Shown: piece after piece, positions 2,749 to 6,155 of the stretch
Layout: each line of letters begins with the position of its first letter
Position numbering within the stretch: the stretch's first letter is position 1
Assembly: GCF_905371695.1 (NCBI RefSeq)
Contig: NZ_CAJPMA010000001.1
Location: 1-42,854, forward strand
DNA length: 42,854 nt
Reading direction: 5' to 3'
From: an uncultured Campylobacter sp.
GTDB taxonomy: Bacteria > Campylobacterota > Campylobacteria > Campylobacterales > Campylobacteraceae
Translations under genes and position numbers: made by a program
The notes under the pieces: model-generated
What the model saw: the letters and a program-made list of their open reading frames with translations, nothing else
The model's database searches: none
Told to the model about the DNA's origin: nothing

Positions 2749-3422
2749 TGTTTGGCATAGATTTTTCGAAATTTCCGGAGCTTTTTAATAAAATTTTACT
2801 TCCGGCGATTAACGAAACGCTTTATATGAGCTTAGTTTCCACACTTTTAGCGTTTATAATAGGGTTAATTCCCGCGGTGCTTTTAATTCTTTGGGATAAA
2901 AACGGGCTAAAACCGAACCCGAAATGTTATTTTACGCTCGACATAGTGATAAATACGCTTAGAAGCTTTCCGTTTATCATACTCATCATCGTGCTTTTCC
3001 CGCTTACCAAGCTCATCGTAGGCACTAGCATCGGTACCACGGCGGCCATCGTTCCGCTTACTATCGGCGCAGCGCCTTTCGTGGCTAGATTAATCGAAAA
3101 TTCGCTAAAAGAGGTCGATAAGGGCATCGTCGAAGCGGCAAAGAGCTTCGGCGCGTCGAATTTTCAAATTATCTTTCGCATAATGTTCGTCGAGGCGTTG
3201 CCCGGTATCGTTTCGGCATTTACGCTAACGCTAATCGTAAATATCGGCTTTTCGGCGATGGCGGGCGCGGTAGGCGGCGGCGGTCTCGGCGCGGTAGCGA
3301 TAAACTACGGCTATCAGCGCTTCCGCCCGGATATTATGTTTTACACGGTCGTGATCTTAATCATAATGGTGCAAATCGTGCAAATTTTGGGCAATTATCT
3401 CTATAAAATTACTAAAAAGTAG
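2748..3422 (+). CDS. metI: Methionine ABC transporter permease
   Basis: LRSFPFIIL, EAAKSFGAS (EAA loop), SAMAGAVGGGGLG motifs. Start placed at ATG 2748 (TGATG overlap with metN stop, GGAGG upstream) rather than 2733. Confidence 0.93.
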   Translation: MFGIDFSKFPELFNKILLPAINETLYMSLVSTLLAFIIGLIPAVLLILWDKNGLKPNPKCYFTLDIVINTLRSFPFIILIIVLFPLTKLIVGTSIGTTAAIVPLTIGAAPFVARLIENSLKEVDKGIVEAAKSFGASNFQIIFRIMFVEALPGIVSAFTLTLIVNIGFSAMAGAVGGGGLGAVAINYGYQRFRPDIMFYTVVILIIMVQIVQILGNYLYKITKK

Positions 3423-3450
3423 CCGTAATCGGCTACTTTTATTTTTGTTT
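3415..3450 (+). terminator. Intrinsic terminator after metI
   Basis: Perfect stem AAAAGTAGCCG-taat-CGGCTACTTTT (3415-3440) followed by ATTTTTGTTT. Confidence 0.8.
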
Positions 3451-3470
3451 AAAGTTTTTTTGCTTACAAT
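3437..3470 (+). promoter_or_regulatory. Putative sigma70 promoter for the leader-metQ transcript
   Basis: TACAAT at 3465-3470 preceded by periodic T-tracts, typical of Campylobacter promoters; about 30 nt upstream of the leader ATG. Confidence 0.6.
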
Positions 3471-3501
3471 CACCGCTAAATTTTACCCGAAAGGATCAGC
3501 C

Positions 3502-3561
3502 ATGAAATCAGATATGTGCGATATGCGTCGCTATACCCGAAACGAGTCGTCGAGAGACTAA
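3502..3561 (+). CDS. Putative Met/Cys-sensing leader peptide, 19 aa MKSDMCDMRRYTRNESSRD
   Basis: AAAGGA RBS at 3490-3495, ATG 3502, Met at codons 1, 5, 8 and Cys at codon 6, TAA 3559-3561; directly upstream of alternative hairpins and metQ. Confidence 0.72.
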   Translation: MKSDMCDMRRYTRNESSRD

Positions 3562-3685
3562 CCTAAGCGCGAAATTTCTTTTTAAGTGCTTAGATTGGCT
3601 AGCATTTAAAAAGAAATTTAAGCTCCCATTTATACGCTTATCCTTTTTAAATTCGCTAGCAAAAATTTTTAAAAAGGATAAAACA
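3558..3685 (+). promoter_or_regulatory. Putative translational attenuator (alternative helices, anti-SD/SD sequestrator) for metQ1
   Basis: Helices 3558-3570:3586-3598; 3572-3590:3601-3619 (19 bp); 3598-3613:3643-3660; and perfect 14-bp 3638-3651:3668-3681 covering the AAGGA SD. Confidence 0.72.
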
Positions 3686-4462
3686 ATGAAATTTTCTAAA
3701 ATCTTACTAGGCGCTTTGCTTGCCGTTAGCTTAAATGCCGCAGACAAAGCTAAAACAATCGTCGTAGGCGCCACCCCAGTTCCTCACGCAGAAATTTTAG
3801 AAACGATTAAACCGCTTCTAGCAAAAGAAGGCTACGCGCTTGAAATCAAGGAATTTAACGACTACTCTATACCTAATCTCGCTACTGAGGACGGCGATTT
3901 AGACGCGAATTTCTTCCAACATCTTCCGTATTTAAACGAATTTAACAAAAATAAAGGCACGCATTTGGTTAAAACCGTCGGCGTACATTTAGAGCCGATG
4001 GCGGTTTATTCGCAAAAGATTAAAAACATTAACGAGCTTAAAAACGGCGATAGCGTCGCGATTCCAAACGACCCTACAAACGAATCTCGCGCGCTTGACG
4101 TGCTAGCCGGCGCGGGACTAATTAAGTTAAACGACAACCCGCTAAAAACTCCGCTTGACATAACCGAAAATCCTAAAAACCTGAAATTTAGCGAAATCGA
4201 AACCGCGCAGCTTCCGCGTACTTTAAGCGACGTTACGATCGCCGTTATTAACACAAACTACGCGCTAAACGCGAATTTAAACCCAACCAAAGACGCTCTT
4301 GTCGTCGAAGGCAAAGATAGTCCTTACGTAAATTACGTAGTAGTTAAAGCCGGTAACGAAAACAGTCCAAAAACAAAAGCCCTCGACAAAGCCATTAACG
4401 ACGAGAGCGTTAAAAAATTTATCGAGGATAAATATAAAGGCGCGATACTTCCGGCTTTTTAA
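3686..4462 (+). CDS. metQ: MetQ/NlpA-family substrate-binding protein (paralog 1)
   Basis: GATPVPHAEIL, DANFFQHLPYL, PNDPTNESRAL, INTNY, SPYVN motifs; signal peptide. Confidence 0.92.
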   Translation: MKFSKILLGALLAVSLNAADKAKTIVVGATPVPHAEILETIKPLLAKEGYALEIKEFNDYSIPNLATEDGDLDANFFQHLPYLNEFNKNKGTHLVKTVGVHLEPMAVYSQKIKNINELKNGDSVAIPNDPTNESRALDVLAGAGLIKLNDNPLKTPLDITENPKNLKFSEIETAQLPRTLSDVTIAVINTNYALNANLNPTKDALVVEGKDSPYVNYVVVKAGNENSPKTKALDKAINDESVKKFIEDKYKGAILPAF

Positions 4463-4573
4463 CCGAATTTAGGCGCTCTAACGAGTAAAATTTCAAGTCG
4501 CCGGGCCGTTGCGCCCAGGCTAACCCCGCTCAAAGGCTTTTTACCTTTTGTGCTAAATCTAAAAGGAAAAACA

Positions 4574-5353
4574 ATGAAAATAAGCAAAATTTTGCTATCT
4601 ACGCTAGTAGCGTTATCGCTAAACGCCGCCGATAAGGCGCACACCATTAAAGTCGCGGTCTCTCCCGTCCCGCACGCCGAAATTTTAGAGGCGATCAAAC
4701 CGCAGCTTAAAAAGGAAGGCTACGACCTTGATATTATAGAAATAAGCGACTACTCGATACCAAACGTCGCTACGCAAGACGGTTCGCTGGACGCAAACTT
4801 TTTCCAGCATCTACCCTACTTGCAAAACCAAAACGAAACGCGCGGGTTAAATTTAGTTAGCGTCGCGGCGATCCACTTAGAGCCGCTGGGCTTTTACTCC
4901 AAGAAAATTAAAAATATCAACGAGCTAAAAGACGGCGCTACCGTCGCGATCGCTCATGATCCTAGCAACGGCAATAGAGCGCTTCAAATTTTGCAAAAAG
5001 CGGGGCTTATAGAGCTAAATAAAAATGCCAAAGTAGCGAGCGTGCAAGATATCGTTAAAAATCCTAAAAACCTAAAATTTACCGAACTTGAAGGCGCGCT
5101 TATACCGCGCGCGCTAGATGACGTCGATTTAGCAGCGATTAGCACGAATTTTATCCTTGATATGGGGATGAATCCAAGCAAAGACGCGCTTTTGATCGAG
5201 GATACCGATAGTCCTTACGCAAACATAATCGTAGTAAAATCCGGAAACGAAAACGAACCTAAAATTAAAGCGCTTGTAAGCGCGGCTACTAGCAAAGAAT
5301 CTAAGGAATTTATCCTTAAAAAATATAACGGCGCGATACTGCCGACATTTTAA
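4574..5353 (+). CDS. metQ: MetQ/NlpA-family substrate-binding protein (paralog 2)
   Basis: SPVPHAEIL, DANFFQHLPYL, DPSNGNRAL, SPYAN; start moved to ATG 4574 behind the AAAAGGA RBS. Confidence 0.9.
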   Translation: MKISKILLSTLVALSLNAADKAHTIKVAVSPVPHAEILEAIKPQLKKEGYDLDIIEISDYSIPNVATQDGSLDANFFQHLPYLQNQNETRGLNLVSVAAIHLEPLGFYSKKIKNINELKDGATVAIAHDPSNGNRALQILQKAGLIELNKNAKVASVQDIVKNPKNLKFTELEGALIPRALDDVDLAAISTNFILDMGMNPSKDALLIEDTDSPYANIIVVKSGNENEPKIKALVSAATSKESKEFILKKYNGAILPTF

Positions 5354-5372
5354 TTAATCAAAAAGGAAATAA

Positions 5373-6155
5373 ATGAAAAATTTAAAATTTTTACTAGCGG
5401 GCGCGCTTTTTGCGCTAAATCTACAAGCCGCGGGCGATGAAAAGACGATCGTAATAGGCGCCACTCCCGTCCCGCACGCCGAAATTTTAGAAGAGGTCGT
5501 AGCGCCGCTTTTGGCAAAAGAGGGCTATAAACTAGAAGTTAAAGTTTTTAACGACTACGTGATTCCTAATTTAGCCGTCGAACAAGGAGATCTCGACGCA
5601 AACTATTTTCAGGGCTTGCCGTATATGAAGTCGTTTAATAAAGACAATGACACGCACATAGTCCCGACCGTCGGCGTGCACGTCGAGCCTATGGGTATTT
5701 ACTCTCGTAAAATCAAGAAGCTAGACGAGCTAAAAGACGGCGATAAGGTCGCTATCTCAAACAACACCGCAGACTCTACGCGCTCAATAAATTTGCTTGA
5801 AAAAGCGGGCGTTATTAAGGCAAAAGACGGCGAATATAAGTCTCCGCACGACATCGTACAAAATCCTAAGAATTTAAAATTTATCGAAATGGAGTCGGCT
5901 CAAACTCCGCGCGCGTTAGACGAAGTAGCAATCGCGTTTATTAATATTAACTACGCGCTAGACGTCGGGCTAAAACCTACGCAAGACGCCCTACTTTTAG
6001 AAGGCAAAGATAGCCCGTATACGAACTACGTAGCCGTAAAGGCGGGTAATGAAAATTTACCGAAAATAAAGGCGCTTGATAAGGCGATTTTAAGCCCCGA
6101 AGTAAAGAAATTTATCGAGGACCGCTACAAAGGCGCGGTGATTCCGTCGTTTTAA
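5373..6155 (+). CDS. metQ: MetQ/NlpA-family substrate-binding protein (paralog 3, divergent)
   Basis: GATPVPHAEIL, DANYFQGLPYM, SPYTNY; AAGGA RBS. Confidence 0.88.
   Translation: MKNLKFLLAGALFALNLQAAGDEKTIVIGATPVPHAEILEEVVAPLLAKEGYKLEVKVFNDYVIPNLAVEQGDLDANYFQGLPYMKSFNKDNDTHIVPTVGVHVEPMGIYSRKIKKLDELKDGDKVAISNNTADSTRSINLLEKAGVIKAKDGEYKSPHDIVQNPKNLKFIEMESAQTPRALDEVAIAFININYALDVGLKPTQDALLLEGKDSPYTNYVAVKAGNENLPKIKALDKAILSPEVKKFIEDRYKGAVIPSF

Follow-up and report, generated by a model that had tools for sequence, protein, structure and literature searches.

A conserved Met/Cys-containing leader open reading frame upstream of Campylobacter metQ as a candidate sensor for translational attenuation of sulfur amino acid uptake

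The enterobacterial leaders trpL, leuL, thrL and hisL each carry a short open reading frame (ORF) with cognate codons, on which the position of the ribosome selects between mutually exclusive helices, and their output is an intrinsic terminator. In the ermC and cat leaders, the Shine-Dalgarno sequence (SD) of the next gene is masked by a hairpin, which is remodelled when a ribosome stalls on the leader ORF, and the trigger is an antibiotic acting together with the nascent peptide. To our knowledge, MetJ and the SAM-riboswitch and T-box systems are missing from the Campylobacterales as a whole, and the control of methionine and cysteine in this order is poorly understood. Here, we analyzed a stretch of 42,854 nucleotides (nt) from an uncultured Campylobacter sp. 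(assembly GCF_905371695.1, contig NZ_CAJPMA010000001.1, positions 1 to 42,854; hereafter the window), in which a 19-codon small ORF (sORF) lies between the methionine transporter genes metI and metQ. This sORF is very probably a genuine regulatory leader ORF, and on balance we favor the view that it is the sensing part of a translational attenuator that depends on the ribosome and responds to sulfur amino acids.

Several leader peptides have been proposed in Campylobacter. LeuL, TrpL and MetL were predicted in C. jejuni by Porcelli et al. (2013, PMC3847290), and all three were confirmed by start-site profiling (PMC11955535). MetL, a peptide of 20 amino acids with three Met codons, lies upstream of metBA and was proposed as a Met-tRNA sensor (PMC3847290). 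It resembles the window sORF in being short, in having Met codons and in lying in a leader of a Campylobacter; it differs in preceding biosynthesis genes and, according to the accessible text of that report, in the proposed route, which is transcription termination and antitermination (PMC3847290). CJsORF19 (MMYQMR, 6 amino acids, Met-rich) lies upstream of C. jejuni Cj0772c and was put forward as a possible new leader peptide by Froschauer et al. (2025, PMC11955535), where Ribo-seq together with start-site profiling detected this sORF ahead of the C. jejuni orthologue. As far as the available part of that report goes, CJsORF19 occupies the same slot as the window sORF, between the gene for a methionine ATP-binding cassette (ABC) permease and the first gene of MetQ/NlpA type, and it is also enriched in Met codons. 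In contrast, it has 6 rather than 19 codons, contains no Cys codon, is accompanied by other hairpins and has no sequence similarity to the window sORF. The same part of the report gives neither a mechanism nor a structure for CJsORF19, whereas the family described here comprises a candidate five-segment relay and a Cys-rich paralogue. The original prediction had left the novelty of such a leader for a transporter to be checked, and it is lower than hoped, since a Met-rich sORF upstream of Cj0772c has already been proposed (PMC11955535).

The window sORF occupies positions 3502–3561 (all features given here lie on the plus strand), with the ATG at 3502–3504 and the TAA at 3559–3561, and its 19 codons encode MKSDMCDMRRYTRNESSRD. 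It has its own SD, AAAGGA (3490–3495), placed 6 nt before the ATG. The putative control codons are clustered at 3514–3525, namely Met5 (3514–3516), Cys6 (3517–3519), Asp7 and Met8 (3523–3525), and are conserved among the sORF DNAs. The original prediction had described this SD and 19-codon ORF downstream of the metI terminator and a TACAAT box, with Met-Cys-Asp-Met at codons 5–8, and the sequence confirms each of these elements. It had also pointed to related metI-metQ spacers as the place to look for retained SD, short ORF and Met/Cys codons, and there the comparison was equally clear. The SD, the ATG, a length of exactly 19 codons, the TAA and the core MKSDMC-x-M are retained in all 27 syntenic metI-metQ spacers of the same genus, and GAAAGGA is invariant in 27/27. 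Specifically, codons 1–6, 8, 17 and 19 are essentially fixed across these 27 loci, and codons 11–16 are free to vary, never with an indel or a stop. It is this conservation in relatives, not the single sequence, that makes the sORF more than chance.

Additionally, a 501-nt query centred on the spacer matched 36/36 genomes of the same genus at 70–75% identity, and when 24 other families of the order were each sampled by a single genome, it returned nothing, or short matches with E~1e-4 (three). The motif of the hairpin 3′ of the sORF is present in 140/141 genomes of the genus; elsewhere in the family, this motif was found only at the level of a reversed-pattern control. Restriction of the element to one genus, as first suggested by a pattern that was too narrow, was rejected, since a looser pattern recovered it in 4/78 genomes of one sister genus.

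We then describe the codons themselves. A scan with a pattern for the SD and the ORF start, using one genome per species, gave at least 120 stretches, and the 80 of them that were inspected are all from Campylobacter. Together with the earlier loci, the loci fetched by pattern amount to at least 158 instances, with at least 33 distinct peptides among the matches listed. The fetch pattern fixes codons 1, 2, 4, 5, 6 and 8, so that those positions are unbiased only in the homology-based sets; for the remaining residues and for linkage to the gene behind the leader, the loci fetched by pattern are informative. The 28 distinct 19-codon sORF DNAs among the matches listed carry Met5 in 27, Cys6 in 28 (TGC in 27 and TGT in 1) and Met8 in 28; at codon 9, 20 of them have Cys and 8 have Arg, the latter as in the window. 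One lineage, L008 (G024:C2), has GTG (Val) at codon 5 within the peptide MKSDVCEMRRFTELKSSKD, seen in two instances. Met5 is therefore not strictly required, and Met8 is invariant in all sequences seen. TGC and TGT switch synonymously at Cys codons 6 and 9 and within a CCC run of the paralogous leader described below, as predicted by selection on the reading frame. Further substitutions are synonymous (TCG/TCT and AAA/AAG) or conservative (AAA/AGA, Lys to Arg).

A second copy of the leader occurs in some genomes of the genus, with the ORF MKNDMCDMCCCEMKS and the close variants MKSDMCDMCCCEMKS and MKNDMCDMCCKVKV, each ending in a stop codon. The peptides match the patterns MK[NS]DMCDMCCCEMKS and MK[NS]DMCDMCCC(E)(M/T)KS, containing 3–4 Cys and 1–3 internal Met within 14–18 codons, and the paralogous ORF is followed by helices of the same kinds as in the metQ-type leader. 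Behind it lie two SBP_bac_3 genes, a cystine-type permease gene, a TcyN-like ATPase gene and, in last position, a gene for a PF01053 Cys/Met pyridoxal phosphate enzyme. For the transporter genes of this operon, the top NCBIfam models are those of cystine ABC transporter components, although no match reaches its curated cut-off. The leader and operon are located, for instance, at L031:529-4699 (G024:C18), with equivalents in L032–L035. Among the matches listed, the metQ-type peptide (2 internal Met and 1–3 Cys) precedes MetQ in 112/112 instances whose downstream ORF could be called, and the Cys-rich type precedes a cystine-type binding protein in 33/33; a further 13 instances lie at contig ends. 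In this set, the codons of the leader follow the type of operon behind it. In the window's own genome, a 92%-complete assembly, the protein nearest to the cystine-type binding protein is only 34% identical, too distant to count as a close homologue, and we therefore take the paralogous leader to be absent from this assembly. The two leader types also differ in a small structure within the ORF: in the window, the last sORF codons fold into a mini-hairpin, GTC-GAGA-GAC (3549–3558), with counterparts in relatives. The tetraloop of this GTC-NNNN-GAC element is GAAA, GAGA or GCAA (GNRA-like) in most metQ-type lineages, and the cystine-type leader is without it.

Downstream of the sORF, five segments, A to E, are predicted to be able to form the mutually exclusive helices A:B, B:C, C:D and D:E. 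Segment A (CTAAGCGC, 3563–3570) begins 2 nt after the stop codon and pairs with B2. Segment B (3572–3593) is made up of B1 (AAATTTCTTTTTAA, 3572–3585) and B2 (GTGCTTAG, 3586–3593); B2 pairs with A, or the whole of B pairs with C. Segment C (3599–3619), comprised of C2 (CTAGCA, 3599–3604) and C1 (TTTAAAAAGAAATTT, 3605–3619), pairs with either B or the extended part of D (D-ext). Segment D (3638–3659) contains an anti-SD (TTATCCTTTTTAAA, 3638–3651), which pairs with E, and D-ext (CTTTTTAAATTCGCTAG, 3643–3659), which pairs with C. Segment E (TTTAAAAAGGATAA, 3668–3681) holds the metQ SD, AAGGA (3674–3678), and is the partner of the anti-SD. In nearly all lineages segment A starts 1–5 nt after the stop codon of the sORF, and where the ORF is two codons longer the stop lies within A.

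The helices were examined in an alignment of 34 representatives that differ at 6 or more positions, drawn from 109 unique leaders. In A:B2 (8 pairs), 98.5% of 270 cells are paired, compared with 13–38% when the strands are slid by 1–3 columns, and one pair covaries (AU 29, GC 3, GU 1). In B:C (22 pairs), 96.6% of 746 cells are paired, compared with 33–63% when slid, three pairs have changed on both sides, and RNAalifold recovers the helix independently. When C is taken as the partner at the B2 position that covaries with A, 11 wobbles and 4 mismatches result, and another B2:C2 pair is mismatched in 15/34; A is therefore the cleaner partner of B2. RNAalifold also pairs GUGC of codons 5–6 with GCAC of segment A, a weak helix of 4 base pairs (bp). 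Segments D and E were scored per sequence, because the alignment is too gappy there for column counts. The D:E helix, which buries the metQ SD, runs over 14 contiguous bp in the window, and 32/34 representatives have 9 or more. The C:D duplex reaches −11 to −18 kcal/mol, and in 33/34 representatives its z-score (z) is below −2 against shuffled D-ext; the window duplex has −17.7 kcal/mol and z = −7.1. Compensatory changes between C2 and D-ext are seen as CATTT/AAATG, TATTT/AAATA and CACTT/AGGTG. The exception for C:D is a C. portucalensis-like leader (L043:4031-4237), with −3.7 kcal/mol, z~0 and a short D:E of 7 bp.

The sister genus provides a further comparison. Four of its genomes contain related leaders, with the peptides MMSDMCEMRYTS, MKSDMCEMYGLEFSCQMT, MTSEMSDMYEMCSF and MMSDMCEMCKF. 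In one of these genomes A, B2, C2 and the tail of D have all changed together (GTAAAACAC / GTGTTTTAC / TGTAAACA / TTTACA), and in the other three the complementarity between A and B lies in another register. The joint changes and the register shift indicate that pairing has been kept where the sequence has not. Variants occur as well. The leader of L043 and L165 (MKSDMCEMYGLEFSCQMT) keeps A:B and B:C without a convincing C:D, and may be a decaying or rewired copy. A GC-rich hairpin stands immediately 5′ of the U-run of the anti-SD in two metQ lineages (L037:1516-1731 and L050:6785-7000) and in a cystine-type leader (L031:529-729), and it looks like an intrinsic terminator; such lineages may use dual control, by termination as well as by SD masking.

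From sequence and folding, we infer that the sORF is translated, that ribosomes stall on it, and in which direction and with what kinetics the switch would work. When Met-tRNA and Cys-tRNA are plentiful, the ribosome would reach the sORF stop and cover segment A. The reach of a ribosome is 12 nt from the first base of the A-site codon, and with this reach a ribosome at the stop covers 7/8 nt of segment A. With A covered, B would pair with C and D with E, so that the metQ SD would be buried and expression would be off. When charged Met-tRNA (or Cys-tRNA) is scarce, the ribosome would pause at codons 5–8, and additionally at codon 9 where this is Cys. Segment A would then be exposed and capture B2, which would free C to pair with D-ext; this in turn would release the metQ SD and turn expression on. 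The output proposed for the window is thus SD masking, i.e. translational attenuation. The attenuator interpretation is supported in that it agrees with all the comparative tests run. The original prediction had proposed attenuation by a leader peptide, and the conserved sORF, its codons and the alternative helices support it; the output in the window looks like SD masking and not like a TrpL-type terminator. Intrinsic termination was considered as the window output and rejected, because no terminator-like site is found in 3441–3800 and the last helix masks the SD.

This arrangement shares features with each of the better-studied systems. Like trpL, leuL, thrL and hisL, it has a cognate-codon ORF, and a ribosome at the stop would favor the off structure; in those leaders, however, the output is a terminator, whereas nothing resembling one lies between the sORF and metQ in the window, where the last helix buries the SD. 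With ermC and cat it shares the remodelling of an SD mask, but the trigger there is an antibiotic, while amino acid supply is proposed here. In the accessible text, the closest tested mechanism is that of the mycobacterial polycysteine sORFs ('Cys ribulon'), in which Cys-stalled ribosomes prevent an mRNA structure that sequesters the ribosome-binding site (RBS) (Canestrari et al., bioRxiv 10.1101/834739). As described there, the two systems are alike in their translational output, with the downstream RBS held in an mRNA duplex, and in that several operons are read by one sensing principle. They differ in three respects. The mycobacterial sORFs are leaderless, whereas the window sORF has an SD 6 nt before its ATG and starts ~30 nt 3′ of the −10 box; they are purely poly-Cys, whereas the window ORF mixes Met and Cys with a single Cys codon, and CC/CCC appears only in the paralogue of relatives; and their ribosome sits on the sequestering structure itself, whereas the window ribosome would act indirectly via the helix relay.

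Folding calculations were used to compare the two states. The whole leader folds better than shuffled sequences (z = −3.6). Enforcing A:B2 in the window is enough for C:D to form, and it leaves the nucleotides of the SD 70–91% unpaired, at −33.7 kcal/mol; masking A, to mimic a ribosome at the stop, gives B:C plus D:E at −33.3 kcal/mol. In growing transcripts that end at 3660–3676 the minimum is A:B2 plus C:D, which flips back once E is included. At equilibrium, the probability that the metQ SD is unpaired is ~0 in the window and at most 0.1 in 27/34 full-length leaders. Together, these calculations suggest that the closed state is the ground state and that the states lie a few kcal/mol apart, with A supplying roughly the margin. 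A pseudoknot combining A:B2 with B1:C1 was rejected by reasoning on its geometry, because a 1-nt linker cannot span a 14-bp helix.

Several of these and other results weigh against the attenuator. The minimum-energy fold of the window is the closed B:C plus D:E structure (−39.9 kcal/mol, versus −33.7 kcal/mol for the open one), and transcripts ending at 3620–3652 already have B:C as their minimum-energy fold. Moving the mask from the stop to codon 8 produced the predicted shift in only 2/34 representatives (L041 and L135), and when the mask on the 5′ part imitates stalling at codon 8, the probability of an unpaired SD stays at or below 0.1 in 28/34. A thermodynamic switch is therefore not claimed, given that partition-function masking gave the predicted shift in 2/34; since equilibrium folding favors the closed state, the open state would have to be a kinetic trap formed during transcription. 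Covarying pairs are few, one in A:B2 and three in B:C, which we ascribe to the element being so conserved, and the shuffle controls for A:B2 and B:C are inflated by relatedness. The codons raise difficulties too. The window peptide holds two internal Met and one Cys in 19 codons, a modest enrichment, and these are few for a starvation sensor. Codons 2–6 are near-invariant at the nucleotide level, and this invariance could reflect a role of the RNA or of the nascent peptide instead of tRNA sensing.

The last point leads to another reading of the same ORF, in which the conserved N-terminus M-K-S/N-D-M-C-x-M is a nascent-peptide arrest module that stalls on free Met, Cys or a derivative and so reports a metabolite pool; TnaC with tryptophan is the model for such metabolite-dependent arrest. 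The first 8 residues are near-invariant in both paralogues, the core SDM[CY]EM persists in the sister genus where the rest of the peptide differs, the K, S/N and D residues are conserved although a pure codon-counting sensor does not need them, and codons 2–4 show almost no synonymous change. The nucleotide invariance is, however, equally explicable by RNA pairing, as in the RNAalifold helix of codons 5–6 with segment A, and the Cys codons rise to 3–4 precisely before the cystine-type operon, which fits the sensing of tRNA charging. Moreover, an uptake system induced by plenty of its own substrate would follow an unusual logic, and we regard arrest as improbable. The same doubt applies to its wider form, in which the module would sense a sulfur metabolite in the ribosome tunnel and the two paralogues with the five-segment relay would coordinate Met and cystine uptake in an oral/gut Campylobacter clade. 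A different possibility dispenses with the peptide: the leader could be a protein- or ligand-binding RNA, or a palindromic DNA operator, in which a regulator or metabolite bound to the near-invariant B:C hairpin sets SD masking and the sORF is incidental or merely helps to stabilize the mRNA. B:C is indeed conserved far past the needs of pairing (11/22 pairs never vary), as DNA it is an inverted repeat of roughly 20 bp, and the closed state is thermodynamically dominant at any ribosome position. The conservation of the stem can be accounted for by the two partners of each segment, and its G-U wobbles (one pair has GU 18 and a second has UG 11) suit an RNA and not a DNA palindrome. An Rfam scan at gathering thresholds gave 0 matches over the whole window; with E at most 10, positions 3300–3800 gave only matches that stay under the threshold and belong to unrelated families (sRNA, snoRNA, miRNA and leader), with no Met/SAM riboswitch or T-box among them, and the best of these matches overlies the metI terminator on the minus strand. 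A binding RNA or operator would also leave unexplained why the sORF keeps its SD, start, frame and length, why its Cys codons change synonymously and why Cys is enriched before one particular operon, and we consider it an unlikely explanation.

Two further readings treat the ORF as unconnected with the control of the transporter. It might encode a small trans-acting Cys/Met-rich peptide, for example one that is metal- or redox-active, merely co-transcribed with the transporter, and both the CxxC-like spacing (C-x-M-C, CCC) and the genus-wide conservation would suit such a product. The length and the C-terminus nevertheless differ across paralogues and lineages (11–21 residues, over the distinct peptides counted above among the matches listed), and the middle of the peptide is unconstrained. 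What is conserved is where the stop codon falls with respect to segment A, and among the matches listed the ORF always lies within a switch-like leader of an uptake operon; a trans-acting peptide is thus very unlikely. Finally, 19 codons alone are not improbable in a single AT-rich spacer, so that a functionless chance ORF could be envisaged. The retention in 27/27 syntenic spacers, the presence of the motif in 140/141 genomes and a paralogue that shares the core and precedes another operon for sulfur amino acids make this scarcely credible. The ribosome-dependent attenuator is the reading that we retain.

The gene order around the leader is a valS fragment, metN (ABC_tran and NIL domains), metI (BPD_transp_1), the 263-nt spacer, three tandem NlpA/MetQ genes, a LysE gene and a VTT-domain gene. 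The metI stop codon (3420–3422) lies within a hairpin (3415–3440) that forms, with the following T-run, a terminator-like element at 3415–3450, with an 11-bp stem containing 5 GC pairs, which closes the metNI unit. A terminator scan found this hairpin on both strands and as the sole terminator-like site in 3300–3800. A T-rich tract followed by a −10 box, TACAAT (3465–3470), makes up a putative promoter of the leader-metQ unit at 3453–3470, with an inferred start site. The block TTTTAA.CTTTTTT..TTA[AC]AAT is kept in 27/27 aligned spacers; the TACAAT box was not flagged by a sigma-70 consensus promoter scan, and its putative promoter role is suggested solely by its conservation with the upstream T-rich tract in those 27 spacers. 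In several relatives (G010, G013, G021, G009, G017, G015 and G034), 1.5–3 kb of other DNA lies between the end of metI and leader-metQ, so the transporter locus can come apart into its two halves. This separability, together with the terminator and the conserved T-rich/−10 block, argues that leader-metQ is a unit of its own.

The genes presumed to be regulated are the three tandem MetQ/NlpA lipoprotein genes at 3686–4462, 4550–5353 and 5373–6155 (Pfam PF03180, E 1e-87 to 1e-94). MetQ/NlpA is also the top NCBIfam match, yet under the curated cut-offs. The masked SD is confined to the first of these three paralogues (3686–6155), and the substrates of the three may differ. C. jejuni Cj0770c-Cj0772c presumably represents a similar arrangement of three tandem MetQ/NlpA paralogues.

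Leaders of another kind also occur at this locus. Six-codon sORFs of the form MM[SP][QS]M[RS], with unrelated alternative hairpins, were found in 5/14 metQ upstream regions of a sister genus (L170, L173, L174, L176 and L179), where they lie about 100–120 nt 5′ of metQ. Right after the stop of such an sORF stands CTGACTATC, and a near-identical TGACTAT lies beside the SD; both are complementary to GATAGTCAG. These features suggest that the six-codon leaders may follow the same logic in a three-segment version of the switch, resembling CJsORF19. With CJsORF19, the idea is already in print for this locus, but the window element is a different, non-homologous solution. In our literature search, the name CJsORF19 was found in no further paper, no regulatory leader peptide of C. 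concisus was found, and MKSDMC, MKNDMC and DMCDMCCC had no match, with supplements that might list such sORFs lying outside the search. What would be new here, judged at the sequence level, is the mixed Met/Cys leader ORF, a two-member family whose codons follow the substrate, and a four-helix relay that would act on SD access.

A masked SD is a rare output design for an amino acid sensor, the nearest tested case in the accessible literature being the mycobacterial Cys sORFs. For the CJsORF19 proposal, the window element would be an independent evolutionary replicate, with the same locus and an unrelated sequence, and it strengthens the view of this intergenic position as a regulatory hot spot. 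The four-helix relay is compact and easily mutated, which makes the hypothesis directly testable in cultured strains. If true, it would explain how sulfur amino acid uptake is tuned across the whole genus (C. concisus, C. showae and the related group), with ribosomes reading out two operons via leaders that differ in their ratio of Met to Cys codons according to the substrate.

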